From assembly GCA_947626145.1 (NCBI GenBank), contig CANQRB010000002.1, positions 68,339-132,338 on the forward strand: a stretch of DNA of 64,000 bases. The letters are read 5' to 3'. The notes beneath the pieces are model-generated. The model was not told the origin of the DNA. It worked only from the letters and a program-made list of their open reading frames with translations, and ran no database searches. Positions 1 through 16,128 of the stretch are shown here, piece by piece; position 1 is the stretch's first letter; the number at the start of each line of letters is the position of its first letter. The stretch comes from an uncultured Clostridia bacterium (GTDB lineage Bacteria > Bacillota > Clostridia > UMGS1883). A program made the translations under genes and the position numbers.

Positions 1-1
1 G

Positions 2-595
2 CCGAAGGAAAGGGAGATAATCACTCTGGGCGGCTACGGCAATATGGACTTCTATGACATGAAGGGCACCGTGGAGGAGCTGTTCGACGCCATGGGCATC
101 ACAAATGTGACCTTTGACACCGCCGCCCCCAACCCCATATATCATCCCGGCAAGAGCGCGGATATATATGTTAATAAGAAGAAAGTCGGTACGGTGGGGG
201 AGGTACACCCCGATGTCTGCGGCAATTATGACGTCGGCGAGACCTATCTGGCCGAGATTGATTTGGACTATGTGCTGAAGTGCGCCGGCAGGGACGTAGT
301 TTATAAGTCCCTGTCCCGATTCCCCGCCGTCACCCGTGACCTGGCCATGCTGGTGGACGACGGAGTTAAGGCCGCCGACATAGAAAACGTTATCCGCCGT
401 GCCGCCGGAAACCTGCTGGAGGAGCTTGAGCTTTTCGACATCTATAAGGGCAGCCAGATACCCGAGGGCAAAAAGAGCGTCGCTTACAGCGCCACCTTCC
501 GCGGCGACAAGACGCTCAAAGAAGAAGATGTTACTAAAATTTGGAACAAGGTGCTCAAGAGCCTTGAACACAATCTGGGCGCCGCTCTCAGGTAG
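2..595 (+). CDS. pheT: phenylalanine--tRNA ligase beta subunit, C-terminal fragment (gene begins upstream of the window)
   Basis: In-frame from the window edge. The C-terminal FDX-ACB-like motifs (RFPAVTRDLA, SVAYSATFRGDKTL) are typical of PheT. Confidence 0.85.
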   Translation, partial: PKEREIITLGGYGNMDFYDMKGTVEELFDAMGITNVTFDTAAPNPIYHPGKSADIYVNKKKVGTVGEVHPDVCGNYDVGETYLAEIDLDYVLKCAGRDVVYKSLSRFPAVTRDLAMLVDDGVKAADIENVIRRAAGNLLEELELFDIYKGSQIPEGKKSVAYSATFRGDKTLKEEDVTKIWNKVLKSLEHNLGAALR

Positions 596-674
596 AATGT
601 CAGAATATCCTGACGGAAGCCGTTGAATTTTGTAAAATTTTCACGAAAACTGCTTTTGTAAATATTTTGTGGTT

Positions 675-726
675 AAAAATGGGCAAAAAACGTTACGTTT
701 TCAGCCCATTTTTAATTTATACATAA
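675..726 (+). terminator. Rho-independent terminator after pheT
   Basis: Long near-perfect inverted repeat aaaaatgggc...gcccattttt with an inner aaaacg/cgtttt stem, followed by a T-run. Confidence 0.6.
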
Positions 727-764
727 AAAATTTAAAATTTTTATAAAAAATCTACAAAAAACAC

Positions 765-793
765 TTGAAGTTTTTAGAGTTTTTGTGTATAAT
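765..793 (+). promoter_or_regulatory. sigma-A type promoter of the sugar-uptake operon
   Basis: TTGAAG, 17-nt spacer, then tgTATAAT (TGn-extended -10), about 40 nt upstream of the first SBP gene. Confidence 0.5.
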
Positions 794-843
794 AGTAGTA
801 TGCAAGCAGTGTGCAAAATTACTAAAAAAGGATGTGGAAAAAA

Positions 844-2982
844 ATGCGCGTAAGGTTAAAAGCTTTGCTTGCCGTAACATCGGCGGTCGCTCTGACCGCG
901 GTGTCCCTTGCCGGGTGCAAACCTTCAAGTCAGGGTAAGACGGGCGCCGTAACGAACATCGTTATAGGTACCCACGCCCAGCAGGAGGACGACCCCAACT
1001 GGGTGGATGAGATCACCGGCGAGTCCACCATGAATCCGGATTATCTCCGGGCGGCGGAAAAAGCTCTTGCCGTAGTTGAGGAAAAGCTGAACGTAAAGAT
1101 ATCCTGGTCTCAGTACGCCAGCGATCTCCAGCAGCTTCTTCTTCAGACGGTTCTGGCGGGTGACCCGTATTGCGATCTGGCCGTGCTTTGGAACGGTGTT
1201 CAGGGCAATATCATGAACCAGAACATACTCCAGCCTTTGGATCCTTATGTTGACAACGTTTTCTTCGGTGAGGACGATGCCGACAAGTCATGGATACCCA
1301 TAGGCAAGACCTTCGGCAGCTATTACCTCATGAACCGCGACCTGCTGTTCGTGAATACCTGGCCGATATGCTACAACATTGACTACATAGAGGCGGTTCC
1401 CGCCCTTAAGGAAAACGGACGGACGGTATATCCCTCCGACCTGTATCTCCGGGGAGAATGGACCTGGAGCAGGTTTGAGGATTACCTCACCAAGATAAAG
1501 GCTTACTATAACGGCAAGAAGGGCCCGGTCAATTCTTCCAATGACATCGTTCCCTTCAACACCAACTACAGCTACGCGGTGCTCATGGCCATAGCTTCCA
1601 ACGGCCAGGCCGTTTACGACGGCGCCAACATGAGCTTCGACACGGCCGAGGCCAAGTCCGCCATAGAGTATATGGACAGGATGATCAACTCCGATCTTAT
1701 CTCCTGCTCCACGGTAAGCGATACGTCCATCGACTCCGGCTGGCTTACCGAGACCGACGCCTTCTGCAACGGCGAGACCGTTTTCACAAACGTTGCCCGC
1801 TGGCAGATGGATAACGCCGGCAGCGCCCTTGCCTCCAGAGGCGAGAGCATGGGCATCATTCCCTTCCCCCGGCCGGACAACGTACCCGCTCCCACCGATG
1901 AGGAAGTAATGAACAACGCCTCCCAGTACCGCATACTCAGCCCGGCGGCCGACAGCGTGGGCCTGATGAAGGGTCACGACGCCGAGCGCAGCGAGCTGGC
2001 GCTTGAGGCCTACGCCACCTATAAGAGCGAATACTACAAGGCTTACGGCGGCGTTGACAGCATAGACGAGTACATGAATCAGCAGGCCGGCCCCGAGGCC
2101 CTGTCCTTCGGTGTGGATATCCTCCATCCCGAGACCGGCGACGATATACTCAAGATATTTGAGCTTATGGGCCGCACAAAGGTTAACGACTACTCCGAGG
2201 CCATCGGCGTGTTCTGGACCTGGACTGACATAGCCGGAAGATCCATCTACGGCTTCGGCGGAACTCCCAAGTATGCCACGGCCGTTGAGGCGAATAAGAA
2301 TACCGTATACGAAAAGCTGGACAATATGTCCAAGGCTCTGAGAAAGGGCGAGGTTGTGGATGATATCGCTCCCTCCGCCAGCACTAAAGAAAGCAACTCC
2401 CTCATTTTTGAGCGTGATACAAAGCCCGCCGACATCAACTGGGCGGATCGGATCAAGGCCAACGACAACGTTGACGGCGATTACGACATCCAGATGGACG
2501 GCACCAAGATTCAGCTCAGAAAGCACGTGGACGAGGACGCCGTTGACGAGGACGGCGAACCCATCCCGCAGGAGGAGTGGCTCGACGGTAAGATGACCGT
2601 GAATTATTCCGGTGTTGACTTCAACACCCCCGGTCAGTACCCCGACGGCATAGTTATCACAACTACCGACTATGCCGGCAATAAGAACGAGCAGAAGTTC
2701 GAGGCCTTTGTTTATGACGATCAGAGCACTGAGCCTCCCACTCTGAAACTCAAGGAAGAGCTTCCCAAGATCGGCGTCGGCACCGACACCTCCAGCTATA
2801 ACTGGGGCAATAACTGTGTCGAGACGGCTACCGATGTAAACGGCATCGACCTTAAGTCGAGAGTTTCCGCCGTGGTCACCGACCTGGATGTGACCGTTCC
2901 CGGAACCTACCCCGTTGAGATCTATGTGGAAGACTTCGCTCATAACATTACAAGAGTGGCAACAGAACTTACGGTAGAATAA
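844..2982 (+). CDS. ABC transporter sugar-binding lipoprotein (SBP family 1) with a ~200-aa C-terminal Ig-like beta-sandwich extension
   Basis: Lipobox LAGC after the signal peptide. SBP_bac_1-like core. The C-terminal tail (NYSGVDFNTPGQYPDGIVITTTDYAGNKNE) resembles Big/DUF5011-type Ig-like domains. Start chosen at the second ATG (844), which has an AGGA RBS; the ORF track begins at 832. Confidence 0.8.
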   Translation: MRVRLKALLAVTSAVALTAVSLAGCKPSSQGKTGAVTNIVIGTHAQQEDDPNWVDEITGESTMNPDYLRAAEKALAVVEEKLNVKISWSQYASDLQQLLLQTVLAGDPYCDLAVLWNGVQGNIMNQNILQPLDPYVDNVFFGEDDADKSWIPIGKTFGSYYLMNRDLLFVNTWPICYNIDYIEAVPALKENGRTVYPSDLYLRGEWTWSRFEDYLTKIKAYYNGKKGPVNSSNDIVPFNTNYSYAVLMAIASNGQAVYDGANMSFDTAEAKSAIEYMDRMINSDLISCSTVSDTSIDSGWLTETDAFCNGETVFTNVARWQMDNAGSALASRGESMGIIPFPRPDNVPAPTDEEVMNNASQYRILSPAADSVGLMKGHDAERSELALEAYATYKSEYYKAYGGVDSIDEYMNQQAGPEALSFGVDILHPETGDDILKIFELMGRTKVNDYSEAIGVFWTWTDIAGRSIYGFGGTPKYATAVEANKNTVYEKLDNMSKALRKGEVVDDIAPSASTKESNSLIFERDTKPADINWADRIKANDNVDGDYDIQMDGTKIQLRKHVDEDAVDEDGEPIPQEEWLDGKMTVNYSGVDFNTPGQYPDGIVITTTDYAGNKNEQKFEAFVYDDQSTEPPTLKLKEELPKIGVGTDTSSYNWGNNCVETATDVNGIDLKSRVSAVVTDLDVTVPGTYPVEIYVEDFAHNITRVATELTVE

Positions 2983-3002
2983 TGAACGGAGGGATTTGAA
3001 AC

Positions 3003-5987
3003 ATGGAGGCAAAAACCAAAAAACGTCTCATAATATGGGGCGTTATCATCGCGGTAATCGCGCTTCTGGTGCTGCTTGCGTTCGTGCTCCCCGGTTCAAA
3101 GGACACTGTGGCCAATTTCGGCGTGTCCGGACGGTTTGTGGATGAATCCTATCAGGCTTATCTTGACGATAACCGCTATGATGAATCCAAGGCCGGCCCC
3201 ACGGCTCCCGTTGAAGTTGACATAGCGAACTTTGTTGCCGATCCGGAGACCGGCGCCGTGGCGGACAGCCAGGGTGTCAAGATTGGCGAACGCGGTGACA
3301 TCACCTGGAACTTCGATGTTGCTCAGGCAGGTTTCTACAACATCAAGTTCAAGTATTTCTCCGTGGAGGGCACAAACGCCACTCCTCAGAGAAGCGTACA
3401 GATCGACGGCGAAACACTGTTCGACGGTATGAAGCAGATTTCCTTCCAGAGGGAGTGGCTCAACAACGACGGTGAGATCGCCAACAGAAACGGAAACGAG
3501 ATCAGGCCCAACGCCACCGAGATCTATGACCCCGATGGATATGAGTTCTTCTATTCCGATGAGAATTACCGCTCTCTTGAGCCCTACAAGTTCTACTTCA
3601 GCGCCGGCCCGCACACACTGACGCTGGTTGAGGCCAAGGAGCCTGTCAAGATCGCCGGCATCACTCTTTGCCAGGCGGAAGAACCCCCTACATATGAGGA
3701 ATATCTGGCCCAGAACCCCGGCAGCAGCTACGCCGGTGAAAATCTGACCGGCCAGGCCGAGCGTACCGACGACGTGGTGACCAAGATCATCAAGTCATCG
3801 CCCTCTATCGGTATGTCCTCCGACTACTCCAGCTCCAACACGGTGCCTTATCATCACTGGAACGTTCTGCTGAACACTCTGGGCGGCACCAGCTGGCAGA
3901 CACCCGGCGACAGTGTTGAGTGGGTTGTCAACGTTCCCGAGGCAGGCTATTATCAGCTTTCCTTCCGCGGACGTCAGTCTACCAACCGCGGCGTTAAGAG
4001 CTACCGCCGCCTGACCATCAACGGTGAGGTTCCCTTCGAGGAGGCCAAGAAGGTCGGCTTCGACTTCTCCGGTTCCTTCCAGAACTACGTTGTGGCCAAC
4101 AACGGCGAACCCGCCCTCTTCTATCTGAACGCGGGCGAGAACAGAATAGGTCTTGACGTATGCCTGGGCGACTTCGCCAACGCTTACACAAAGATCAGCC
4201 AGACGGTACAGGATCTGAACAACTTCTATCTTAGAATAGTTAAGATCACCGGTACCGTTCCCGATACCCACATCGACTACGAGATCGAGGACAAGATCGA
4301 CGGCTTCAAGGCCACCATGCGTCAGCAGGCCAAGAACCTGAACGCCATCGTTGACGAGATGGTTGAGATAACCGGCGAAAAGGGCTCCAACACCACCAAC
4401 CTGGAGAAGGTTGCCCAGCAGGCCGAGCGCTTTGCCGAGGATCCCGAGCGCGTTGTTAAGGAGATCGGCGACTTCAAGAGCAATATTTCCGCTCTGTCAA
4501 CATGGATGCTGACAATTTCGGAAATGCCCTTTGAGGTTGACAGCCTGACTCTCAGCGCTCCCAACGCCAAGCTTAAGCCCGCCGAGCCCAACGGCCTTAA
4601 GGCCGCTTACCACGAGGCCATCCGCTTCTTCGCCACCTTCTTTGTTGACGAGACTCAGATGGACGACAGTGCCAAAGACAAGGGCGCTCTCAAGGTTTGG
4701 ACCCAAACCGGCCGTGACCAGTCCAACATCATCAAGAACCTTATCGACAGCGATTTCGCTCCCAACAACGGCATCGCGGTCAACCTTCAGCTTATTCCCG
4801 CGTCCGTAATCCTTCCCGCTACTCTGGCGGGCAACGGTCCCGACGTGGCGCTGAACATGGGTCAGGCCGACATCATGAACTTCTCTTACAGAGGAGCCCT
4901 TCATGACCTGACACAGTTCCCCGACTTCCAGGAGCAGGCCGACCGCTTCTATCCCAGCGCTCTCCAGACCGTTACATATCACGGCGGAGTTTACGGCCTT
5001 CCCGAAACCGAGAACTTCAGCATGATGTTCTACCGCGAGGATATCCTCAACGAGCTGGGCCTCACCGTTCCCAAGACCTGGGACGAGGTAGGCGAGATGA
5101 TCTCCGAGCTGCACATCAACAACTATGACTTCTATATGCCCTCCAGCCTGATGATAAACACCATGGTTTATCAGAACGGCGGCGACCTCTACCACGGCGC
5201 CGAGGGTGAGACCTATTACGACAGAGACGGCGATCCCGTCAAGGATGCCAACGGCGCTCAGGCTGCCGGCGTATCCACCGACTACGGTATCGAGTCCGGT
5301 CTGAGAGATGAAGAGGCCATGATCGCCTTCAAGCGTCTGTGCGAGTTCTTTACCGCTTATGACCTGCCCGTATCCGCCGATTTCTCCAACCGTTTCAGAA
5401 CCGGTGAGATTCCCATCGGCGTAGCCGACTACACCACATTCAACACTTTGGAAATCTTCGCTCCCGAAATCAAGGGCCTGTGGAACTTTGCTCCCCTGCC
5501 CGGCTTCCAGAAGGCGGACGGCAGCATCGACAACACCGCCGTTGCTTCCTCCGTACACACAACCATCCTCGAGAGCAGCGACCGTCAGGATGACGGCTGG
5601 ACTTTCATGAAGTGGTGGCTGTCCGACGACATTCAGGCCAGCTTTGCGACCACCGTTGAGGCCATCATGGGCAGCGGCGCCCGTTACGCCACCGCCAACC
5701 CCAACGTGCTGAAGAGACTTCCCTGGTCCGCGGCTCAGGCCGACACCCTGCTTTCGCAGTTTGAAAAGACTGTAGGTATCCCCGACGTTCCCGGATATTA
5801 CATGACGACCCGTATGGTTGACATGGCTTATAAGAACGTTGTTACCGACGGTCAGAATCCCCGTGAGGCTCTCTACCTTAACGTTAAGGATATCAATGAC
5901 GAGCTTACCAAGAAGAGAAAGGAATTTGACCTTTCCTACATCGAGGACGGAACATATCATGAGGAAGGGAGTGAGGTAAATGAGTAA
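3003..5987 (+). CDS. 994-aa membrane-anchored extracellular solute-binding protein with N-terminal tandem CBM-like beta-sandwich repeats
   Basis: GGAGGG RBS and an N-terminal TM anchor. Two homologous ~120-aa repeats (GDITWNFDVAQAGFYNIKFKYF / GDSVEWVVNVPEAGYYQLSFRG) precede a C-terminal SBP family-1 domain (DGWTFMKWWLSDDIQASF). Confidence 0.8.
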   Translation: MEAKTKKRLIIWGVIIAVIALLVLLAFVLPGSKDTVANFGVSGRFVDESYQAYLDDNRYDESKAGPTAPVEVDIANFVADPETGAVADSQGVKIGERGDITWNFDVAQAGFYNIKFKYFSVEGTNATPQRSVQIDGETLFDGMKQISFQREWLNNDGEIANRNGNEIRPNATEIYDPDGYEFFYSDENYRSLEPYKFYFSAGPHTLTLVEAKEPVKIAGITLCQAEEPPTYEEYLAQNPGSSYAGENLTGQAERTDDVVTKIIKSSPSIGMSSDYSSSNTVPYHHWNVLLNTLGGTSWQTPGDSVEWVVNVPEAGYYQLSFRGRQSTNRGVKSYRRLTINGEVPFEEAKKVGFDFSGSFQNYVVANNGEPALFYLNAGENRIGLDVCLGDFANAYTKISQTVQDLNNFYLRIVKITGTVPDTHIDYEIEDKIDGFKATMRQQAKNLNAIVDEMVEITGEKGSNTTNLEKVAQQAERFAEDPERVVKEIGDFKSNISALSTWMLTISEMPFEVDSLTLSAPNAKLKPAEPNGLKAAYHEAIRFFATFFVDETQMDDSAKDKGALKVWTQTGRDQSNIIKNLIDSDFAPNNGIAVNLQLIPASVILPATLAGNGPDVALNMGQADIMNFSYRGALHDLTQFPDFQEQADRFYPSALQTVTYHGGVYGLPETENFSMMFYREDILNELGLTVPKTWDEVGEMISELHINNYDFYMPSSLMINTMVYQNGGDLYHGAEGETYYDRDGDPVKDANGAQAAGVSTDYGIESGLRDEEAMIAFKRLCEFFTAYDLPVSADFSNRFRTGEIPIGVADYTTFNTLEIFAPEIKGLWNFAPLPGFQKADGSIDNTAVASSVHTTILESSDRQDDGWTFMKWWLSDDIQASFATTVEAIMGSGARYATANPNVLKRLPWSAAQADTLLSQFEKTVGIPDVPGYYMTTRMVDMAYKNVVTDGQNPREALYLNVKDINDELTKKRKEFDLSYIEDGTYHEEGSEVNE

Positions 5988-6924
5988 AGAACAAACAGCG
6001 GCTGCAAAGCCAAAAAAGAAAAAGCTTGAGGCAATGAAGTGGTCAAACGCCTGGAAGCTTCACAAGGAAAAATACCTTATGATACTCCCCTTCGCGCTCA
6101 TCTTCATATGCTTCACCGCCATCCCCGTACTGGTTTCCATAGTTTTGAGCTTTACTAACTTCAATATGCTTCAGACCCCCGATTTTATAGGGCTCGGTAA
6201 CTATATCAACCTTATCGTATTCGATGACATTTTCCTGATAGCCATGAAGAACACCATGCTCTTCGCTCTGGTTACAGGTCCTATCAGCTACCTGATGTGC
6301 TTCGTGTTTGCCTGGCTCATCAACGAGCTGCCCCCCATACCCCGCGCGCTGCTGACCCTGGTGTTCTACGCACCCTCCATTTCCGGTAACGCCTTCGTTA
6401 TCTGGAAGCTGCTGTTCAGCTCCGATATGTACGGCTACATCAACGCCTGGCTGCTGAACATAGGGATCATCGACAGTCCCATACTGTGGTTCGAGACGGC
6501 GGAATACATTATGCCCATTCTGATTATAGTTCAGCTGTGGCTGAGCCTGGGCGTATCCTTCCTGTCCTTCATCGCCGGACTTCAGTCCGTTGATAAGACC
6601 ATGTATGAGGCCGGCGCCATCGACGGTATCAAGAACCGCTGGCAGGAGCTGTGGTACATAACCCTGCCCGCCATGAAGCCCCAGCTGATGTTCGGCGCGG
6701 TAATGCAGATCACATCCTCGCTTTCCGTCGCCAGTATATCCACCGAGCTGGCCGGTTTCCCGTCAGTAGACTATGCGGGTCATACGATTCTGACCCACTT
6801 GAACGACTACGGCAGCACCCGTTACGAAATGGGCTACGCGTCTGCCATAGCCACGGTAATGTTCTTTATAATGATTTTCGCTAACATCATCGTACAGAAG
6901 CTTTTGAGAAGGGTGGGTGAATAA
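5980..6924 (+). CDS. carbohydrate ABC transporter permease (MalF/LplB-type)
   Basis: Six-TM binding-protein-dependent inner-membrane component. Overlaps the upstream gene by 8 nt (translational coupling). Confidence 0.9.
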   Translation: MSKEQTAAAKPKKKKLEAMKWSNAWKLHKEKYLMILPFALIFICFTAIPVLVSIVLSFTNFNMLQTPDFIGLGNYINLIVFDDIFLIAMKNTMLFALVTGPISYLMCFVFAWLINELPPIPRALLTLVFYAPSISGNAFVIWKLLFSSDMYGYINAWLLNIGIIDSPILWFETAEYIMPILIIVQLWLSLGVSFLSFIAGLQSVDKTMYEAGAIDGIKNRWQELWYITLPAMKPQLMFGAVMQITSSLSVASISTELAGFPSVDYAGHTILTHLNDYGSTRYEMGYASAIATVMFFIMIFANIIVQKLLRRVGE

Positions 6925-6927
6925 AGC

Positions 6928-7818
6928 ATGATCAATCCTATAAAGAAATTTAAACAGTATCTTGATCATCGCAGGATAACCCGCCGGAACCGTTCGCTGG
7001 GCGTGGATATCGCGCTGACGGTCTTCCTGGGAGCCTTCGGTCTGTTCTCAGTCCTGCCTCTCTGGCTGATCATCATCAACGCCTTCAAGCCTTTGAACGA
7101 GGTATTCCTGTTCCCGCCCCGGTTCTACGTTTCCAACCCCACTCTCGACAACTTCCGCGACCTGTTCCAGATCGTGGGTAACAGCTGGGTTCCCTTCAGC
7201 CGTTACATCTTCAACACCTTCTTCATCACCTTCCTGGGCACGGCCGGCACGGTTATATTCGGCTCCATGGCCGCCTATCCTCTGGCCAAGTACAAATTCC
7301 CGGGCAGCGGCGCCATGAGCAGCATCATAACCTACTCCCTGATGTTCAACGGCACCGTAACGGCTATCCCCAACTATATCATCATGAGCAAGATTCACCT
7401 CGTTGATACATATTGGGCGGTCGTTATTCCGGCCATCGGCTCTACCCTGTGCCTGTACCTGATGAAGAACAACATGGTACACATACCCACATCTCTGCTC
7501 GAGTCCGCCAAGATCGACGGCTCCAGCGAGTTCGGAATTTACTGGAAGGTTGTAATGCCGCTGGCAAAACCCGCATGGATAACGGCTATCATACTTTCGT
7601 TCCAGTCCCTGTGGGGCGCCACCGGCGGCAACTTCATCTACACCGAGAAGCTGAAGCCCATAACCTACGCGCTCAGTCAGATCATCAGCGCAGGTATCGT
7701 GCGTACCGGTGTATCCTCGGCGGTTAACCTGATTATGCTGGCAGTGCCTATCGCGGTATTCGTATTCTCTCAGAGTAACGTTATCGAAACGATGGCCAGC
7801 TCCGGCATGAAAGATTAA
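6928..7818 (+). CDS. carbohydrate ABC transporter permease (MalG/LplC-type)
   Basis: Six-TM permease with an EAA-like loop; starts 4 nt after the previous stop. Confidence 0.9.
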   Translation: MINPIKKFKQYLDHRRITRRNRSLGVDIALTVFLGAFGLFSVLPLWLIIINAFKPLNEVFLFPPRFYVSNPTLDNFRDLFQIVGNSWVPFSRYIFNTFFITFLGTAGTVIFGSMAAYPLAKYKFPGSGAMSSIITYSLMFNGTVTAIPNYIIMSKIHLVDTYWAVVIPAIGSTLCLYLMKNNMVHIPTSLLESAKIDGSSEFGIYWKVVMPLAKPAWITAIILSFQSLWGATGGNFIYTEKLKPITYALSQIISAGIVRTGVSSAVNLIMLAVPIAVFVFSQSNVIETMASSGMKD

Positions 7819-7832
7819 GGGGGTGCAAAGTG

Positions 7833-9329
7833 ATGACAAAAAGAATAATCAGCCTTGTTACGCTCGTTCTCTTATGCTTCACATTTGCAACCGCTTATGC
7901 CGAGCATACTGACGACAGCAGTTACATTTACGATTATTGGGGCAGCGCAAATCAGAGCCTGAACGCCTTTGAGCTTTCCACCGTTATCAACAGTGACAGC
8001 GTTGAAGGCGCGTCCATCAAGAGCGTTGACGACGTTTACGTTCACAATGACAGGATCTACATCGCGGACTCCCTTTCCAACGCGGTTCACGTTCTTGACC
8101 GGGACTACAACCTGGTGAAGGAGATCAAGATAATCCGCGACGAAGAGGGCAAAATCGTTGTTGATGACAGCAATAACAAGCAGGCCATCCTCAACGCTCC
8201 CGAGGGAGTTTTCGCCAATGACCGCAGCCTCTACATTGCCGACACCGGCAACAACCGCATATTCGTTCTGGATATAAACGCCAAGGACGAGGCGGGTGAA
8301 AACACCTATCCCATGACTATGGTTATCAATAAGCCTGAAAACATGGTAGGTTCCACCGAGTTTATTCCCTCCAAGATAGCTGTTGACAACGCCGACAGAC
8401 CCTTTGTAGTCGTAAAGAACAGCACCGAGGGTATCATCGAGCTCAACACCGACGGCAGCTTCTCCCGCTACTTCGGCGTTAACTCTCCTCAGGTAAGCCT
8501 GATCGACTTCTTCTGGAAGTCCATAGCTTCCGACGAGCAGAAGGAAAAGATGAGCAAGATCTACGCTCCCGCCTTCACAAACGTTGAGACCGACTCCGAC
8601 GGCTTCGTATATGCGGTTACCACCGATACCGCTTCTGAGGAAATGGCCTTCCGTTTCAACGCCAAGGGCTCTAACGTGCTCCGCAAGTTCGGCTACAGTG
8701 AGATCTTGGGCGACCTGCCCAGCGCCTCCTCCACCGACGAGAGCGCGACAAAGAGCACATTCGTGGATGTGGCGGTTTCCGACTACGGCGTTTATGCCCT
8801 ACTGGACACCTCCAAGAACAGAGTGTTCCTTTACAACTTTGACGGCAACCTGCTCACCGTTTTCGGCGGCAAGGGCGACACAAAGGGTAAATTCAACACT
8901 CCCTCCTCCATCTGCTGGATGGGCCAATCCCTGATCGTGGGCGACAGCAAACTGGCAAGCGCCTTCGTGTTCACGCCTACCGATTTCGGTTCCCTTGTGC
9001 TTGAGTCTGAGGAAATGTACTTCAATGGCGATTTCGACGGCGCGGCCGTCAAGAACAAGCAGATCGTTGCGATGAACGCCAACTACGATCACGCCTATGT
9101 TTCCATCGGCAAGAACGAGCTCATGCGCGACAACTACAAGGCCGCCATGGATAACTTCAGGCTGGGCAACGACAAGACCTATTACTCCACGGCCTTCGGC
9201 GGCTATCGGAATCTGCTCATTCAGAAGTATTTCCCGATTTTCGCCATCGTGTTCCTTGCCTTCGTTGTATGGGTACTCTGGACAGAGATAGCCTACAACC
9301 GGAAGCAGAAGAAGTTAGAAGAGCTATAA
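7833..9329 (+). CDS. secreted NHL-repeat beta-propeller protein with a C-terminal TM anchor
   Basis: Signal peptide. Repeated NHL-like blades (DRIYIADSLSNAVHVLD, SLYIADTGNNRIFVLD, SLIVGDSKLASAFVF). C-terminal hydrophobic helix (FPIFAIVFLAFVVWVLW) followed by a basic tail. Confidence 0.7.
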   Translation: MTKRIISLVTLVLLCFTFATAYAEHTDDSSYIYDYWGSANQSLNAFELSTVINSDSVEGASIKSVDDVYVHNDRIYIADSLSNAVHVLDRDYNLVKEIKIIRDEEGKIVVDDSNNKQAILNAPEGVFANDRSLYIADTGNNRIFVLDINAKDEAGENTYPMTMVINKPENMVGSTEFIPSKIAVDNADRPFVVVKNSTEGIIELNTDGSFSRYFGVNSPQVSLIDFFWKSIASDEQKEKMSKIYAPAFTNVETDSDGFVYAVTTDTASEEMAFRFNAKGSNVLRKFGYSEILGDLPSASSTDESATKSTFVDVAVSDYGVYALLDTSKNRVFLYNFDGNLLTVFGGKGDTKGKFNTPSSICWMGQSLIVGDSKLASAFVFTPTDFGSLVLESEEMYFNGDFDGAAVKNKQIVAMNANYDHAYVSIGKNELMRDNYKAAMDNFRLGNDKTYYSTAFGGYRNLLIQKYFPIFAIVFLAFVVWVLWTEIAYNRKQKKLEEL

Positions 9330-9333
9330 TGAG

Positions 9334-9969
9334 GTGAAAATGATGAAAAAGTTATTAGAAGATTTCAAATATCTGACGTACGTCATTTTCCATCCATTTG
9401 ATGGCTTCTATGAGGTACGCTTCAGAGGCAAGGGCAATTTGGCCCTGGGCGCCATAATACTTATACTTTACGGTCTGCTGGCCATAATCAAGTATCAGTA
9501 TACGGGCTTTATAATGAACAACAATCCACTGTTCGCCATGAACAGCGTGACGACATTCATCTTCGGCATATTCCCGTTCCTGCTCTTCTGCATAAGCAAC
9601 TGGAGCGTGACGGCAATATTTGAGGGAAGCGGTAAGTTCAGCGACATCTTTATCGTGCTCACCTACGCCCTCTTCCCCAAGCTGGTGCTGGATGCTGTGA
9701 TCGTTATCCTCAGCAACGTTGTTACCGCCGAGGAGGCCACGATCCTCACCGCCATCAGCGCCGCGGGCAGCGTATTCTTCGCCTTTCTGGTATTCGCGGG
9801 TCTGTGCGTGGCTCATGAGTATACCGCCGGCACCAACGTTGCCATGTTAGTGGCCACCTTCGTTGCGGCGATAATTATCATCTTCCTGGCCATTCTGTAC
9901 ATTACCCTTATTCAGAAGGCGGTATCCTTCGGCTACACCTTCGCGGCTGAATTTATGAAGAGGTGGTGA
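9334..9969 (+). CDS. YIP1 family membrane protein
   Basis: ~210-aa polytopic membrane protein with a Yip1-like arrangement. GAGGTG RBS; overlaps the next gene. Confidence 0.75.
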   Translation: MKMMKKLLEDFKYLTYVIFHPFDGFYEVRFRGKGNLALGAIILILYGLLAIIKYQYTGFIMNNNPLFAMNSVTTFIFGIFPFLLFCISNWSVTAIFEGSGKFSDIFIVLTYALFPKLVLDAVIVILSNVVTAEEATILTAISAAGSVFFAFLVFAGLCVAHEYTAGTNVAMLVATFVAAIIIIFLAILYITLIQKAVSFGYTFAAEFMKRW

Positions 9970-9974
9970 TTGAT

Positions 9975-12860
9975 ATGAAAAACTTTTTAAAGAATTTAAG
10001 CGTGCTTAAAATACTTTGCATCGCGTTGGTAATATTCTTGGTGGTTGAGTTCGTATCATGGCTGCCTCAGCTGGGAACCAAGGCCACGGCCCTTCCCGGT
10101 GTGACCTCCAGCGAGCTTGCGAACCCGCTGAACACTGTTGACACCACCTCTGACGGCTGGGTAACGGTCGCCGAGGAGGGCGGCAAGCAGCTTATGGTCA
10201 ATCCCTCAAATCTCAACATAAGAGTCGTTGACACGGCAACCGGTACATATTGGGAGTCTGTCAGCGACACTCAGGAGTCCAGCTCCACTCCCGGCGGTCC
10301 CGTTTCGATAACCTATATCGACGGCGCCGGCGCCGAAAAGGTCTGGAACGGCTACAGCTACAGTATCCAGGACGAGGGCGAGTCCATTACCGGCGAGGAA
10401 GTTGAGAAGAAGTACAGCATCGAGCGTATTCCCAACGGCTTCCGTGCCAACATGACCTTCGCCAGTGAGGAGTCCACCAACCTTGAGGAATATATGCCCA
10501 AGATGGTAAGCGTTGAGCGCTATAATGAGTTCTTCATTGACAAGGTGCAGGAGCTGGTTGACAACGGCACCATTACCGCCGAGACTCAGGCCAGCTACAA
10601 CAACGCTCTGGATAAGATTTACGCTCTCTCCGACGACGAGACCCACTACTATAACAAGCTGGCCGGTACGCCTCCCGTATCCGCTACAAGAATACTTATC
10701 GACCTGAGCAAGAAGGTAAATTACACTGTTGACGAAATTCGTATCGACAGCCAGGAGTTTGACTTCACCTTCACCGTTACCGAAAATCCCCGGTTCATCG
10801 TTCCCGTTGAGTTCACCCTTGACGGCGGCGATCTGGTGGTAAACGTTCCCACCGGCAAGATCGTCAACGAGAGCCAGGAAAACGAGCAGGGCGAGAAGGA
10901 GTATCAGCTTAAGGCGATACACATTATGCCCAACTTCGGTCTGGTCAAGTCCGATGAGACAGACAACGGATTTATCTTTGTTCCCGACGGCAGCGGCGCC
11001 CTCTTTGACATCAACAGCTACGACAGCGGTTATGCCGAGTACAGCCGCCCCGTTTACAACAACACCTATTACGACACGCTCTACAATCAGAGCGAGTTCC
11101 GTGAGAATATCACAATGCCCGTATTCGGTATGGGCAGCGACGCCAACCGCATAGAGGCTCCCGCCGAGGAGGAAGAACCCGCAGAGGGTGAGGCCGCCGA
11201 GGGTGAGGAAGCCGCTGAGGGCGAAGAAGCTGCCGAGGAGGAGGAACCCGCCGAGGAGCCTGCCGAAGAACCTGCCGAGGAGGAAGCTCCCGCTGAGGAG
11301 CCCGCCGCCGAGGGCGAGGCTGCTGAGGGCGAGGCTGCCGAGGGCGAAAATCCCGCTCTTGAAGTTGCTCCCGGCCCTGCGGTTAAGCCTTATAACGGCT
11401 TTATGGGAATCATTGAGAGCGGCGACACCACAGCCTCCATCAATGTCAAGCTGGCCGCCACCGGCGACGTTGCCGCCGACGCTCCTTACAACAAGGTATA
11501 CCCCAGCTTTGACGTAATGCAGATAAGCAGCGTTAAGGTATTCGGACCTTACAGCGATAACGACGCCCGTTTCACCGCTATGACCGACAGCTTTGACATG
11601 GACTGCAGAGTCCGTTACAAGCTCTATACCGACAACGCCAACTACTACACCATGAGCCAGTCTTACCGTGATTACATAATCTCTGCCTACAATCTTAAGG
11701 AAAAGTCCGCTGAGGAAACCACCGCTCCGAGAGTATTCCTGGACGTTATATCCTCCCTTACTATCGATGCCCGTTTCGTAGGCGTTCCTTACGACAAGAC
11801 TGTTTCAATGACCACTTATGATGAACTTGCGGAGATTTATGAGGATCTTAAGGCTGTCAATCCCATCGTAAGCTATAAGGGAGCCTTCAACGGCGGTATT
11901 TACAACAAGGTAAATTCCGACGCCAAGCTCACCTCCAGCAACGGCAGCAAGTCCGATCTGGACGCCCTGCTCAGAGATCATTGGGATTCCCTTTACCTCA
12001 ATGTAAATCCCTCTCAGGTTTACAAGACATCCTCGTCCTTCAAGACGAAGCACGCCCTTGTAAACTTCAACGGCGAGCCTCTCAGAACCTATGAGTACAA
12101 CATCCCCACCGGCGAGTTCAATATGCACGGCAACGGCTTCTACACCGTGGCGCCCGCATATCTCCCCAATATTGTTGAGAAGTTCTCGGCGGCGGCCGCC
12201 GATTATAAGAACCTGAGCATCGGTGATCTGGGTAATCTGTATTACGAGGATCTCCGTGACGGCAAGCATTGCTCACCTTATCAGGGCGAACAGGTTATCC
12301 AGAACGCTCTTCAGACTCTCTCTCAGGATCGTAAGCTTGTGCTTTACAATCCCAACGCCAATCGCATCGGATATGCGGCTGTCGCGGCCGACATTTCCAG
12401 AGAGAGCAGCGACTACGGTCTTATAAAGGAGAACGTTCCCTTCCGTCAGCTGGTACTCAACGGACTTACCGATTATACCACACTCAGCGTAAACACAGCG
12501 TCCTCCAACAAGGCTTACTTCCTGCTTCAGGCTATGGAGCTTGCCGCGTTCCCCAAGTATACCATCACCGCCAAGGGTGTGGCCAATCTTAAGGAGAACA
12601 ACTACAACGAGCTCTTCGCCACAGAGTACAGCATCTTTGCCGATGAGATCAAGGAAATGGATCAGACCATCAAGGACGAGTTCGCCAAGATCGGTACCAC
12701 GAGAATTAAGTCCCATCAGGTTCTTGCCGACAAGGTTTACGAGACGACCTATGAGACAGGCGTTAAGGTTATCACTAACTACAACACCTTCAGCGTAACG
12801 GTCAACGGAGAAACTCTGGACGCTCAGAGCTATGTCATTAAGGAAGGAGGGGATGAATAA
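9975..12860 (+). CDS. large membrane-anchored extracellular protein, DUF5696-like, with an internal acidic EPAEG low-complexity linker
   Basis: N-terminal TM and a ~960-aa ectodomain. I recall this gene neighbourhood (large SBP + permeases + YIP1 + DUF5696) from Paenibacillus/Clostridia loci, but the family assignment is from memory and not verified. Confidence 0.65.
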   Translation: MKNFLKNLSVLKILCIALVIFLVVEFVSWLPQLGTKATALPGVTSSELANPLNTVDTTSDGWVTVAEEGGKQLMVNPSNLNIRVVDTATGTYWESVSDTQESSSTPGGPVSITYIDGAGAEKVWNGYSYSIQDEGESITGEEVEKKYSIERIPNGFRANMTFASEESTNLEEYMPKMVSVERYNEFFIDKVQELVDNGTITAETQASYNNALDKIYALSDDETHYYNKLAGTPPVSATRILIDLSKKVNYTVDEIRIDSQEFDFTFTVTENPRFIVPVEFTLDGGDLVVNVPTGKIVNESQENEQGEKEYQLKAIHIMPNFGLVKSDETDNGFIFVPDGSGALFDINSYDSGYAEYSRPVYNNTYYDTLYNQSEFRENITMPVFGMGSDANRIEAPAEEEEPAEGEAAEGEEAAEGEEAAEEEEPAEEPAEEPAEEEAPAEEPAAEGEAAEGEAAEGENPALEVAPGPAVKPYNGFMGIIESGDTTASINVKLAATGDVAADAPYNKVYPSFDVMQISSVKVFGPYSDNDARFTAMTDSFDMDCRVRYKLYTDNANYYTMSQSYRDYIISAYNLKEKSAEETTAPRVFLDVISSLTIDARFVGVPYDKTVSMTTYDELAEIYEDLKAVNPIVSYKGAFNGGIYNKVNSDAKLTSSNGSKSDLDALLRDHWDSLYLNVNPSQVYKTSSSFKTKHALVNFNGEPLRTYEYNIPTGEFNMHGNGFYTVAPAYLPNIVEKFSAAAADYKNLSIGDLGNLYYEDLRDGKHCSPYQGEQVIQNALQTLSQDRKLVLYNPNANRIGYAAVAADISRESSDYGLIKENVPFRQLVLNGLTDYTTLSVNTASSNKAYFLLQAMELAAFPKYTITAKGVANLKENNYNELFATEYSIFADEIKEMDQTIKDEFAKIGTTRIKSHQVLADKVYETTYETGVKVITNYNTFSVTVNGETLDAQSYVIKEGGDE
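11160..11350 (+). repeat. in-frame tandem 18-bp (6-codon) repeats encoding an (E/A/G/P)-rich acidic linker
   Basis: gagggtgaggccgccgag-like units repeated about 10 times; protein sequence EEEEPAEGEAAEGEEAAEGEEAAEEEEPAEEPAEEPAEE... Confidence 0.7.
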
Positions 12861-13807
12861 TGAAACAGGAAGCGAATGTGGCAGATAAGACAAAAAAGAC
12901 AAGAAAGCCACTTACCTTCGCCACCACCCAGAAGATAAACGGTTATGTTTTCCTGGCGCCGTGGATAATAGGTTTCCTCTTGTTCTTCATGATCCCGATA
13001 GTAAACACCGTTATCTATTCCTTTAACAAGGTTGAGGTTGGCGACACCGGCGGTATGGCCATGGAGTTTGTCGGCACGAACAACTACTTTGACCTGTTCA
13101 ATACCGAGGTTTCCACCCAGTCTCAGCAGTTCATCCGCGTATTTACCGACGAGAACTCCGACGTTCTCCTCAACACCCCCCTGATAGTAATATTCAGCCT
13201 GTTCTGCGCGCTGCTCGTCAACGCGAAGTACAAGGGCCGGGGCATAGTCCGTGTAATCTTCTTCCTGCCCATAGTTCTCGGTCTTACGATAGTAACTGAC
13301 ATGATAACCGTATCGGGCGGCGGCGGAGACATCACCGCAGTGGCCACGACGGCCACGGAGGAGTCAAGCTTCCTGATGAACCTGTTCACTCAGGTAGGCT
13401 TCCTCCCGAAAGAAGTAATTTCCTTCATTGTCGGCGTTATCAGCGACATCTTCGGCATTGTTTCCAAGGCCGGCGTTCAGACGCTGATGTACCTGGCCGC
13501 CCTCCAGTCCATCAACCCCTCACTTTATGAGGTTGCCAAGATCGAGGGCTGCACGACATATGAAACCTTCTGGAAGATAACCTTCCCCATGGTTGGCAAC
13601 ACAACGCTCTTCATCTTCGTATACACTCTGGTTGACCTGTTCCTGGCCTCCAAGATGTCTGAAGAGATTTACGCGTTTGCCTTCCAGAGCAACAAGATCG
13701 GCGTCGGAAGCGCCCTCTCCGTATGCTTCCTGCTGAACGTGCTTGTAGCGCTGGTAATCATGGTTTTAATTCTGACAAAGGTGGTGAAATTAGACTATGG
13801 CAAGTAA
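12860..13807 (+). CDS. carbohydrate ABC transporter permease (MalF-type), second pair
   Basis: Six-TM permease. Its ATG overlaps the upstream stop (taATGa). Confidence 0.9.
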   Translation: MKQEANVADKTKKTRKPLTFATTQKINGYVFLAPWIIGFLLFFMIPIVNTVIYSFNKVEVGDTGGMAMEFVGTNNYFDLFNTEVSTQSQQFIRVFTDENSDVLLNTPLIVIFSLFCALLVNAKYKGRGIVRVIFFLPIVLGLTIVTDMITVSGGGGDITAVATTATEESSFLMNLFTQVGFLPKEVISFIVGVISDIFGIVSKAGVQTLMYLAALQSINPSLYEVAKIEGCTTYETFWKITFPMVGNTTLFIFVYTLVDLFLASKMSEEIYAFAFQSNKIGVGSALSVCFLLNVLVALVIMVLILTKVVKLDYGK

Positions 13808-14840
13808 GACTAAAACCAAGGTCAAGGGCCAGAGCTTCGGCGCCTGGCTCAAGGATAAGTGGAACGACAACTCCATTACCGATCCGCTCCACCGTACCCG
13901 TTACCTCCAGAATTTGGTGTTCCGCATCTTTGCGATCTCCCTCATTCTGGGTATGTGCTTCACCATTCTCTATCCCATCATCAAGCTGTTACCCATGGTG
14001 CTCAACGACGTTGAGGATCTGGGCAACCCCGATATCGTATGGGTACCCAAGACCTTCTCGCTGGTGAGCTTCAAGGCCGCCATCCGGTTGGTTTACGGTA
14101 ATTTCTCCATCATCCTCTGGTCACTGCTTTACGCGGCCAGCATAGCCGTTATCCAGGTGTTCATCAGCGCCATGGCCGGTTATGTTCTGGGCAGAATAAA
14201 GGTGCCCGGCGGAACGCTGATCTTCTTCCTGATCATCGTTACCTTCGTTGTTCCCAATCAGGCTTTGCTGATTTCCCAGTACCTGCGCTTTAAGAATTTT
14301 GACATCTTCGGAATTTTCACCGCCCTCACCGGCGGCCCCATCGACCTGATTAACAAGCCCGCCACCTTGTATCTGCTGTCGTTCTTCGGCTTTGGTCTCA
14401 AGCAGAGCATGTTCATCTACCTGTTCCGCCAGTTCTTCATGGGTCTGCCCAAGGAGCTGGAGGAGGCCGCCCTTATCGACGGCTGCGGCTTCTACAAGAC
14501 CTACTTCAGAATTGCCCTGCCCAACGCCACTCCCACCATCATGACGGTTGCTATCCTGTCCTTCGTGTGGAACTACGGCGACACCTATTACACCGGTTAC
14601 TTCTATCCGGAAGGACCCTTCGCGGCTGTTAAGCTGTCCCAGCGGTTCGCCGCTTCCCAGTCCGACACCATCGTTACGGCGGTGCAGACCTGGTTCGACA
14701 AGCCCGCTGCCTCGGCTTTCGCCTTCGATGCCGTTAAGCAGGCGGCCGTGCTCATCTTCCTGGTTCCCCTTCTGATCGTATACTTCTGCGTTCAGAGGAG
14801 CCTTGTAGAGAACATGGAGCAGTCCGGTCTGGTTGGATAA
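13797..14840 (+). CDS. carbohydrate ABC transporter permease (MalG-type), second pair
   Basis: Permease with an extended N-terminus; overlaps the upstream gene by 11 nt. Confidence 0.9.
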   Translation: MASKTKTKVKGQSFGAWLKDKWNDNSITDPLHRTRYLQNLVFRIFAISLILGMCFTILYPIIKLLPMVLNDVEDLGNPDIVWVPKTFSLVSFKAAIRLVYGNFSIILWSLLYAASIAVIQVFISAMAGYVLGRIKVPGGTLIFFLIIVTFVVPNQALLISQYLRFKNFDIFGIFTALTGGPIDLINKPATLYLLSFFGFGLKQSMFIYLFRQFFMGLPKELEEAALIDGCGFYKTYFRIALPNATPTIMTVAILSFVWNYGDTYYTGYFYPEGPFAAVKLSQRFAASQSDTIVTAVQTWFDKPAASAFAFDAVKQAAVLIFLVPLLIVYFCVQRSLVENMEQSGLVG

Positions 14841-14862
14841 GGCATTCCAGAAAAACAATAAA

Positions 14863-14890
14863 GGAACCGCTTCGGCGGTTCCTTTTGTTG
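14863..14890 (+). terminator. Rho-independent terminator of the sugar-uptake operon
   Basis: ggaaccgc-ttcg-gcggttcc followed by ttttgttg, 22 nt after the last permease stop. Confidence 0.75.
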
Positions 14891-15097
14891 TGTCGAAAAA
14901 ATGCGGCCTTGTACCGTAAATGATAATTAGGAATTAGAAATGAGGAATGAGGAATAGATTGTGAGGCAAATTTATTTGTCGTTGGTGTGACGGTGATGTA
15001 ACCTTTCTTCCGTAGGGACGGCCATTGGCCGTCCGCCATAAAACATTTACTTTTGCAATAATGAACGAAATTATCAATTAAATATATCCGCACCGTC

Positions 15098-15778
15098 TTA
15101 CGATAAAAATGATAAATACCCCGTAGGGCGCGACGAGGAGACACGTCTCCCGGCGCATCGAAAACAATCATTCAATATTGATTCTATCTCCGATATGCCG
15201 TCCGCCGTCAAATCGGGCGGGCAAGTGAGCGCGCGTACATTTCCGAGTGCGCCGTGGCCCTGCTTTACCCACAGAGTCACCATGCCTAGCAGTTGGGCCG
15301 GGGCGATGTCGTTGTCCAGCCGGTCGCCTATCATCATGGCCTCCGAGGGCTTGCAGCCCGCTGTCTCAAGAGCCTTGCGGAAAATTTCCGTATTCGGTTT
15401 GGCCGTCCCCACGTCTCCGGAGCCCACAATGACCTTGAAATACCTGCCTATGCCGTAACTCTCCAGCCTTTCCCGCAGACCCGCGTTCTGATTTGCGACG
15501 ACGCCGAGGGAATACCGCTCTGACAGCTTTTCCAAAAGCTCTTCGGCGCCCGGATATAACCGTTCCAGCTCACCCGGCCATACGCCCTTCCGAAGGCCGA
15601 ACAGCTTGCAGGCCTCATTGAAGCCGTCGAGATTTTGGGCGGCAAAGCGGCAATATGCCCTCTCGAAATCCTCAAAGCTCACATCTGTCCCGGCCACGGT
15701 ACGCCGCACCCACTCCGACTGACAGTCGGTCTCGTCGATGAGGGTGGAACCCAGGTCAAAAAACAGCCATTTTATCAT
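15098..15778 (-). CDS. HAD family hydrolase (subfamily IA-like)
   Basis: N-terminal FFDLGSTL (DxD-type motif I) and a later GDxxxD motif. The C-terminal ~40 aa of the ORF may be over-extended. Confidence 0.75.
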   Translation of the reverse strand: MIKWLFFDLGSTLIDETDCQSEWVRRTVAGTDVSFEDFERAYCRFAAQNLDGFNEACKLFGLRKGVWPGELERLYPGAEELLEKLSERYSLGVVANQNAGLRERLESYGIGRYFKVIVGSGDVGTAKPNTEIFRKALETAGCKPSEAMMIGDRLDNDIAPAQLLGMVTLWVKQGHGALGNVRALTCPPDLTADGISEIESILNDCFRCAGRRVSSSRPTGYLSFLS

Positions 15779-16128
15779 TGAGCCGCCTCCTGCGGGGGCC
15801 TGTCCTCAAGATGCTCCTTTCCCCAATGACACAGCTCCAGAAGAATGGGGGAGAGGCTCTTTCCCTTTTCGGACAGGGAATATTCCGTCCTTGGCGGGAC
15901 TACCGGATAGACCTTCCGCTCTATCATTTTGTCCGCCTCCAGTTCACGGAGCTGCTGGGTCAGCATTTTTGCCGTGGCTTGGGGCACCAGCCGCTGAAGC
16001 TCGCTGAACCTCAGCGTTGTGCCTATCAGGTGCCAGAGTATGATGGCCTTGTATTTTCCGCCGATGAGGTGGATCGTGGCCTCGATGGGGCAGTTGTAGC
16101 CCTCGCATTTGCAGCAGGGTCCCGGCAT
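15775..16128 (-). CDS. HxlR family transcriptional regulator
   Basis: CPIEATIHLIGGKYKAIILWHL...RFSELQR... is a typical HxlR winged-helix sequence; 4-nt overlap with the HAD gene. Confidence 0.8.
   Translation of the reverse strand: MPGPCCKCEGYNCPIEATIHLIGGKYKAIILWHLIGTTLRFSELQRLVPQATAKMLTQQLRELEADKMIERKVYPVVPPRTEYSLSEKGKSLSPILLELCHWGKEHLEDRPPQEAAQ

Follow-up and report, generated by a model that had tools for sequence, protein, structure and literature searches.

The 64-kb stretch analyzed here (64,000 nucleotides of contig CANQRB010000002.1 from an uncultured rabbit-gut Clostridia bacterium, GCA_947626145.1; hereafter, the window) carries near its beginning a gene cluster for carbohydrate uptake by ATP-binding cassette (ABC) transporters. 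An open reading frame (ORF) check of the window revealed that positions 832-14840 are filled by nine co-oriented ORFs on the forward strand, rather than by the ten genes counted in an earlier note on this DNA, whose own gene list also sums to nine. In order, these ORFs encode a lipoprotein solute-binding protein (SBP; g1 or S1), a 994-aa SBP (g2, S2), a first pair of MalF/UgpA-type and MalG/UgpE-type permeases (g3, F1 and g4, G1), a secreted NHL beta-propeller protein (g5, N), a Yip1-family protein (g6, Y), a DUF5696 ectoprotein (g7, D), and a second permease pair (g8, F2 and g9, G2). Pfam and NCBIfam searches with hidden Markov models (HMMs) bore out the domain calls of the earlier note. All junctions were found to be 20 nt or shorter, with gaps of 20, 3, 11, 4, and 5 nt and overlaps of 8, 1, and 11 nt. 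These three overlaps had been noted before, together with one of 4 nt, which proved to be a 4-nt gap between g5 and g6, and one of 7 nt, which requires g7 to start from the GTG at 9963; the ATG at 9975, which has the better ribosome-binding site, leaves a 5-nt gap to g6.

A sigma-70-like promoter candidate (TTGAAG-17-TATAAT, positions 765-793, forward strand) with 10 of 12 consensus matches sits within a 236-nt AT-rich intergenic stretch 3' of pheT, precisely where a promoter had been placed. It is a consensus match, and since the 17 promoter-like sites in the region were not clearly above the 11.2 ± 3.5 found in shuffles, it is regarded as a candidate only. At the opposite end, a G+C-rich hairpin of 11 pairs (6 G-C) was found at 14860-14885, close to the terminator previously assigned to 14863-14890, between g9 and the convergent gene for a HAD hydrolase (15098-15778, minus strand). 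The hairpin scores on both strands, with the better T-run on the minus strand, and judging from these features it is likely to act as a bidirectional terminator. No Rfam element, riboswitch, or leader was detected in positions 1-16000 of the window. With nine co-oriented genes, junctions of at most 20 nt, one promoter-like site, and one hairpin, the proposal of a single, tightly packed operon lacking an ATPase gene was upheld. On balance, 832-14840 appears to constitute one operon encoding a self-contained glycan-acquisition cassette without an ATPase, a reading that, taken as a whole, we favor with modest confidence.

The two SBPs were found to differ in their architecture. The product of g1 (832-2982) has an LAGC lipobox, a MalE-like fold at approximately residues 40-505, and two C-terminal Ig-like domains at approximately 515-716. 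Its SBP_bac_1 match (24.4 bits) was below the Pfam cut-off; searched against PDB sequences, the single sequence gave no match and the g1 profile matched an Ig-like domain only. The AlphaFold (AF2) model of g1, built with 46 homologs (predicted local distance difference test, pLDDT, 90), retrieved MBP-Ig fusions and the sugar SBPs 7c68 and CbpB 7x0m in Foldseek (target TM-score approximately 0.6), and Ig-like domain families (Bact_surface_Ig-like) were matched at the C-terminus in eight of nine g1 orthologs; on these grounds, g1 was assigned as a MalE-like SBP with two Ig-like domains. The second methionine of the ORF, M5 (nt 844), shows no variation among the aligned orthologs and is immediately followed by a typical lipoprotein signal peptide, and this residue is probably the true start as far as the alignment indicates. 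Two homologs of g1, P0460 and P0462, bear an S-layer homology (SLH) domain in place of the Ig-like tail, a domain swap that suggests an alternative surface anchoring of this SBP.

The product of g2 (3003-5987) begins with a transmembrane helix (residues 10-28), followed by beta-sandwich segments resembling carbohydrate-binding modules (CBMs) at approximately 60-225 and 290-395, a helical spacer at approximately 400-550, and an SBP_bac_1 domain at approximately 555-990 (72.7 bits, E = 7e-20, Pfam match at residues 577-879). The CBM35 (CBM_35) match was borderline, at 28.1 bits versus a cut-off of 28; the two CBM-like segments share motifs by eye only, and BLAST of the N-terminal region revealed no internal repeat. 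The best match among PDB sequences was Lin1841 (5ysb; E = 1e-23 over residues 554-887), which we take to be the Listeria innocua SBP for beta-1,2-glucooligosaccharides. Lin1841 is a 397-aa SBP without the transmembrane anchor, CBM-like domains, and stalk of g2, the similarity being moderate and the specificity not transferable. Both binding proteins are thus of the SBP_bac_1/MalE-like kind found in CUT1-type importers, g2 by its sequence and g1 by its AF2 fold. In one relative of approximately 90% identity (L004, 1663-4615), the gene for the large SBP is split into ORFs 1663-2148 and 2402-4615, and the split may stem from a frameshift, from decay into a pseudogene, or from an error of assembly.

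The usual description of a carbohydrate ABC importer in Bacillota comprises one SBP and two permeases, and those CUT1 importers that lack an ATPase of their own share MsmX/MsmK, as do AraNPQ and GanSPQ of B. subtilis. In the present cassette, an EAA coupling loop was read in all four permeases, namely YEAGAIDG...LP in g3 (5980-6924), ESAKIDG...MP in g4 (6928-7818), the EAA-like YEVAKIEG...FP in g8 (12860-13807), and EEAALIDG...LP in g9 (13797-14840). The BPD_transp_1 domain was above the Pfam cut-off in g3, g4, and g9; g8 was below it (18.9 bits) but matched UgpA at E = 5e-13. Each pair therefore presents the two BPD_transp_1 subunits with EAA coupling loops that define a CUT1-type importer. 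The identity between the pairs is only 22% (g8/g3) and 23% (g9/g4), and the pairs are therefore ancient paralogs. Toward the Paenibacillus and Cohnella orthologs, g3 displayed 70-78% identity, and between Clostridia and Paenibacillaceae the identity of the pair-1 permeases amounts to 67-78%, versus 32-43% for DUF5696 over the same span. At the P0072 locus, the first permease pair is fused into one 588-aa protein.

No ORF containing both Walker A and LSGGQ was found anywhere in the 64-kb window, and an ABC ATPase was absent from inside all of the 105 related cassettes described below (0/105). It may reasonably be inferred that an MsmX/MsmK-type ATPase, encoded at another place in the genome, is shared by the two translocators and energizes both. 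The cassette thus resembles AraNPQ/GanSPQ-type CUT1 systems in having MalF/MalG-type pairs with EAA loops, an SBP_bac_1-type SBP, and no ATPase gene in the operon, whereas it differs from them in its two diverged permease pairs, its 994-aa transmembrane-anchored SBP with CBM-like segments, and its three embedded non-transporter membrane proteins.

Of these embedded proteins, g5 (7830-9329) comprises a signal peptide, an NHL beta-propeller, a helical region, and a C-terminal transmembrane anchor (470-488). Its NHL match reached 22.1 bits versus the Pfam cut-off of 20, and it matched the NHL domains of TRIM71, Thin, and SOQ1 at E = 2e-11 to 2e-7. At least 860 relatives of this component were found, including those of Anaerocolumna, Mobilitalea, Anaerotaenia, Paenibacillus, Cellulosilyticaceae, and Tissierellaceae. 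The following g6 (9334-9969) belongs to the Yip1 family (PF04893; E = 6e-12, 46.2 bits versus a cut-off of 28.6), with approximately five transmembrane helices by hydropathy. NHL and Yip1 are fused in 20 of 67 loci and separate in 47, with a fusion protein of approximately 710 aa seen among the distant DUF5696 loci, and the family representative P0205 is a natural Yip1-DUF5696 fusion; both kinds of fusion are consistent with the predicted membrane topologies. The Yip1-family protein YknW was reported to modulate assembly of the YknXYZ ABC complex of B. subtilis (PMC4887032). As in YknWXYZ, a Yip1-family membrane protein is encoded here within an ABC transporter operon; YknYZ, however, is a MacB-type exporter plus membrane-fusion protein, whereas the present operon encodes importer-type permeases, an NHL propeller, and a glycoside hydrolase (GH)-like ectoprotein.

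This ectoprotein, g7 (9975-12860, or from 9963 with the alternative GTG), has an N-terminal transmembrane anchor and matched DUF5696 (PF18952) at E = 1e-124 (417.6 bits versus a cut-off of 25.6). The structure prediction that had been proposed for it did yield a GH-like fold of the GH129/GH101 type. In the AF2 model (46 homologs, pLDDT 83, predicted template modeling score 0.82), an N-terminal beta-sandwich, a (beta/alpha)8 barrel, and a C-terminal beta-sandwich together make up the three-domain fold of GH129. The top Foldseek matches were the GH129 enzymes ZgGH129 (5opq, E = 4e-25), 8rzk, and NagBb (5wzr, E = 1.5e-18) with target TM-scores of 0.65-0.70, followed by GH101, GH36, GH31, GH97, and GH13. 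ZgGH129 (5opq) is a 3,6-anhydro-D-galactosidase, and NagBb (5wzn) an alpha-N-acetylgalactosaminidase. When the DUF5696 family profile was searched against PDB sequences, GH129 chains were matched weakly but collinearly, in short stretches with E = 2e-6 to 1e-4. Membership of g7 in GH129 was nonetheless rejected because the identity is approximately 10%, leaving a relation at the superfamily level only. It further differs from GH129 in belonging to a separate Pfam family, in being membrane-anchored, and in being embedded in an ABC transporter cassette.

As far as is known, families of the GH129, GH101, GH36, GH31, GH97, and GH13 type act on alpha-glycosidic bonds, and most employ an Asp nucleophile at a barrel strand end. 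The three domains and barrel of g7 are those of GH129 and GH101, and in g7 an Asp is located after a barrel strand where a nucleophile would be expected. This residue, D751, lies two residues past the strand 746-749 within the motif [LIV][SA][LIV]xD[LM]G, and Asp occupies the position in 96 of 125 diverse family members; at E810 (R-E-S-S), Glu or Asp occurs in 81 of the 125. The two residues were picked by position and conservation, and we put forward D751 as a candidate nucleophile and E810 as a candidate acid/base by way of hypothesis.

Within the N-terminal domain of g7, residues 395-470 approximately (window positions 11160-11347) constitute an acidic, Pro/Ala/Glu-rich low-complexity insert, which is encoded by degenerate tandem repeats of 15-42 nt and was modeled at a pLDDT below 50. 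The Paenibacillus, Cohnella, and Niameybacter orthologs lack the insert, and even for close relatives the tblastn alignments are interrupted at this point. Several DUF5696 proteins reach 1200-1900 aa through long extensions without a Pfam match. A profile search of 1.84 billion cluster representatives (50% identity) counted 6,493 family proteins at E ≤ 0.001 and 3,886 at E ≤ 1e-30, with gut, rumen, and soil Bacillota as hosts.

To place the cassette in a comparative context, a census was compiled of 105 related loci, consisting of those from a genome scan and 80 from a metagenome scan, in which the ORFs were classed by HMMs made from the nine proteins. These loci, which range from 22% to 98% in identity, are not independent samples. 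In the genome scan, the full nine-gene order was found in Clostridia metagenome-assembled genomes (MAGs) from rabbit, goat, and roe deer, an Oscillospiraceae MAG, Niameybacter, two species of Paenibacillus, and Cohnella; the gene order is also kept in Mobilitalea and in a Spirochaetia MAG. The closest match, CANRJP010000059 from a rabbit-gut Clostridia MAG, was 98% identical, and distant DUF5696 loci of 22-25% identity showed the same order of SBP, F, G, NHL, Yip1, DUF5696, F', and G'. NHL, with Yip1 either separate or fused, directly precedes DUF5696 on its 5' side in 67 of the 68 loci with enough flank, and F2-G2 directly follows it in 74 of 77. These linkages and the natural fusions indicated that NHL, Yip1, and DUF5696 did not come to lie between the permease pairs by chance but form integral components of the operon; the block of Yip1, DUF5696, and second permease pair is conserved among relatives, and a complete loss of linkage across them was not what we found.

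In two of the three exceptions to the F2-G2 linkage, approximately 4 kb lies between F2 and G2 (L071, 12734-16667; L104, 12734-16624), an insertion possibly representing a mobile element or an additional gene. In the Spirochaetia MAG (L022, GCA_026002455.1), DUF5696 is 33-39% and the pair-1 permeases are 66-71% identical, and two GDSL esterase genes follow; the cassette may have arrived there by horizontal transfer from Bacillota or reflect a binning error. No second cassette lies within the flank of the Mobilitalea locus, and the sequence surrounding the g1 paralog P0448 ends at a contig end.

The census also revealed that the cassette is composed of two modules, A (g2-g3-g4) and B (g5-g9), the latter probably served by g1. 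Long flanks were available for 50 loci; of these, 45 have S2-F1-G1 upstream, two (L068 and L095) have it downstream, and three lack it. A g1-type SBP was located at the 5' end in 33 of these loci and right after G2 in 11, and was undetected in six. In the loci from which module A is missing or in which it has moved (L068, L070, L084-L086, L094, and L095), the g1-type SBP still adjoins NHL-DUF5696-F2-G2. The former view that the first permease pair alone has SBPs attached was therefore abandoned: because the g1-type SBP follows G2 in 11 loci and stays with module B, each permease pair probably has its own SBP.

Taking these lines of evidence together, the surface complex for glycan capture and processing, coupled to two importers, that the earlier note had suggested was the best-fitting reading, in keeping with the GH-like fold of g7 and the conserved linkage. 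In our estimation, it is somewhat probable that a complex at the surface processes glycans and supplies two importers, which a shared MsmX-type ATPase would power. In the mechanism proposed, Yip1 would be the hub in the membrane, keeping the propeller and the GH129-like protein on the cell surface beside permease pair 2. The CBM-bearing SBP (g2) would capture a polymeric or oligomeric glycan, which g7 would then trim with D751 as the putative nucleophile and E810 as the putative acid/base, possibly with involvement of the propeller. Two products might enter the cell, one via S2 and F1-G1 and the other via S1 and F2-G2, with the ATPase of MsmX/MsmK type from elsewhere in the genome driving both translocators.

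Clues to the substrate were sought in the genes beside the related cassettes. In Niameybacter and UMGS1389, the neighbors encode LacI, aldose epimerase, GH84, galK, and galT; in Cohnella and Paenibacillus, GH30_2 lies upstream and GH43, GH30_2, GH35, and LacI lie downstream; and in Mobilitalea, GH38, AraC, and a Melibiase_C protein were found. A census of 92 further neighbors contained LacI (6-7), GH30_2 (6), GH35 (5), GH42 (4), GH10, GH26, sulfatase, GH2, and AraC (3 each), and GH130 and pectate lyase (2 each). These neighbors weakly suggest a galactose-containing glycan as the substrate of this ortholog group. A plant galactan such as type II arabinogalactan would be in line with the combination of GH30_2, GH35, and GH43, a suggestion made with low confidence, and GH84, galK/galT, and aldose epimerase are what one might expect for host-type glycans, so that the neighbor evidence points more than one way. 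Such variation of partners across the family is as expected of a reusable uptake platform.

Several observations weigh against a glycan-processing complex that feeds two importers. The position of E810 holds Glu or Asp in only 65% of the DUF5696 family, one subfamily has Thr at position 751, and g7 shares only approximately 10% identity with GH129. The postulated MsmX-type ATPase itself was not seen in the data at hand, which comprise the 64-kb window and the cassettes. Because S1 went undetected in 6 of the 50 long-flank loci, a dedicated SBP may not serve pair 2 in every case. Finally, neither a regulator nor a recognized carbohydrate-active enzyme (CAZyme) adjoins the cassette in this window in the manner of a polysaccharide-utilization locus, and since its own flanks are pheT and the HAD hydrolase gene, the substrate inference rests on other genomes with varying neighbors. 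The residue counts also speak for an alternative that we consider unlikely, in which DUF5696 is a degenerate, GH-like glycan-binding or scaffold protein and the trio is an assembly, gating, or sensing accessory of pair 2 that performs no cleavage. Such a role would agree with the incomplete conservation of E810 and the Thr variant at 751, and, D751 apart, the expected barrel positions hold no acidic residue that is conserved family-wide, the best-conserved acidic residues being D338 in the N-terminal domain, D590 in the assigned barrel strand 1, and E855 in a barrel helix; YknW, moreover, is a non-catalytic assembly modulator (PMC4887032). On the other hand, D751 stands in a nucleophile-like position and context and is retained in 80% of the family, the three-domain GH129 architecture is preserved, and the cassettes often lie among glycoside hydrolase genes.

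The sparse surroundings of the cassette in this window bear on a further alternative, quite improbable in our judgment, that it salvages or remodels glycans made by the cell itself for its envelope or matrix (for example, exopolysaccharide, spore-related material, or polymers of the secondary cell wall) and re-imports the fragments. In this window and in several gut Clostridia MAGs, no regulator or CAZyme adjoins the cassette, and its flanks are housekeeping and sporulation-related, with pheT, gpr, and nifSU here and Cu_amine_oxidN1 and 3D-domain genes in relatives; SLH-domain envelope proteins are also encoded in the window. The LacI/AraC regulators and the GH30_2, GH35, GH43, GH10, GH26, GH130, and galK/galT genes beside the cassette in Paenibacillaceae, Niameybacter, Mobilitalea, and many metagenomic loci argue against salvage, as does the CBM-bearing SBP, which suggests capture of an external polymer. 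The organization into modules, in turn, bears on two opposite readings of the permease pairs. That both pairs belong to a single super-complex with one substrate pathway, for example as one scaffold or receptor and one channel, is in some accordance with the unusual conservation of the pair-1 permeases (67-78% as against 32-43% for DUF5696), which suggests many interaction constraints, and with the co-location of the modules in 47 of 50 loci; this reading was nevertheless judged highly improbable in view of the EAA loops in all four permeases, as expected for two separate ATPase-binding dimers, and of the variants having module B only (L070, L084-L086, and L094). Conversely, the cassette might be two ordinary, independent sugar ABC importers that adjoin by chance with three unrelated genes between them, given that each module holds standard CUT1 importer parts and that module A can move or be lost. 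To this reading, we attach hardly any credence: the order of NHL, Yip1, DUF5696, F2, and G2 is maintained (67 of 68 loci on one side of DUF5696, 74 of 77 on the other), even at 22-25% identity, natural fusions exist, and module A adjoins in 47 of 50 loci, by all of which it is strongly disfavored. Nothing in the gene content pointed to a defense system or a mobile element.

The favored reading, a surface complex that processes glycan for two importers, admits a bolder form, which we offer as a tentative but conceivable extension. NHL-Yip1, DUF5696, and pair 2 might constitute one machine, a Gram-positive "utilisome" in which a membrane-anchored, alpha-glycosidase-like enzyme of a new family, held by Yip1, would cut the captured polymer and pass its product straight to its own ABC translocator; the whole might then be an eight-gene reusable platform of Bacillota, retargeted to other polysaccharides by diversifying SBPs and DUF5696 (cf. 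SusC/D in Bacteroidota). The likeness to Sus-like utilisomes and Gram-positive polysaccharide-utilization loci is a functional analogy only, in that surface capture, an enzyme, and a transporter occur together with varied CAZyme neighbors. Unlike Sus, the cassette has no SusC/SusD homology, and uptake would proceed by ABC importers across a single membrane.

In the literature searched, no paper mentioning DUF5696 was found, and searches on a new GH family related to GH129/GH101 returned nothing on the DUF5696 family. Those on combinations of Yip1, NHL, and ABC transporters returned nothing relevant to the cassette, YknW being the sole precedent found. To our knowledge, nothing equivalent to this fixed trio of accessory proteins has been described in Gram-positive loci. 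On present evidence, no categorically new principle is at work: the cassette belongs to the CUT1-type ABC uptake loci and is distinguished by an accessory module that is fixed, widespread, and as yet unstudied, along with a GH-like family to which no function has been assigned. Its significance lies in a fixed membrane-protein trio that is co-inherited with the second permease pair from 98% down to 22% identity. Should g7 prove active, DUF5696 would qualify as a candidate for a new glycoside hydrolase family; docking of the trio on the transporter, if it occurs, would make this the first enzyme-coupled ABC importer architecture of its kind and give Yip1 a new bacterial role. The cassette thus provides a compact, recognizable marker for an unstudied glycan acquisition route in gut Clostridia, and the gap is large, cleanly defined, and experimentally tractable.

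Elsewhere in the window, the cassette is flanked by pheT upstream and by the HAD hydrolase gene, gpr, nifS, and nifU downstream, with thrS further on. An arabinan- or arabinoxylan-directed enzyme had been noted approximately 13 kb away, and a 1730-aa multi-domain protein with ASD1_dom and Alpha-L-AF_C (GH51-type arabinofuranosidase), Glyco_hydro_32N-like, Laminin_G_3, and Big_4 domains is indeed encoded at 27725-32917. The implied link to the operon did not hold up: this protein is probably unrelated because housekeeping genes (gpr, nifS, nifU, and thrS) lie between, and no GH51-type arabinofuranosidase neighbor occurred in the other cassette flanks examined. Envelope proteins encoded in the window include one with Cu_amine_oxidN1 and BspA-type leucine-rich repeats (19398-20465), a 337-aa SLH protein (21693-22706), and a 1038-aa SLH protein (47379-50495) with no other recognized domain. 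In addition, a GHKL-domain (HATPase_c_5) protein and an 836-aa HlyD/biotin-lipoyl-like membrane protein of the membrane-fusion type are encoded at 37845-39143 and 40645-43155 (minus strand), respectively.

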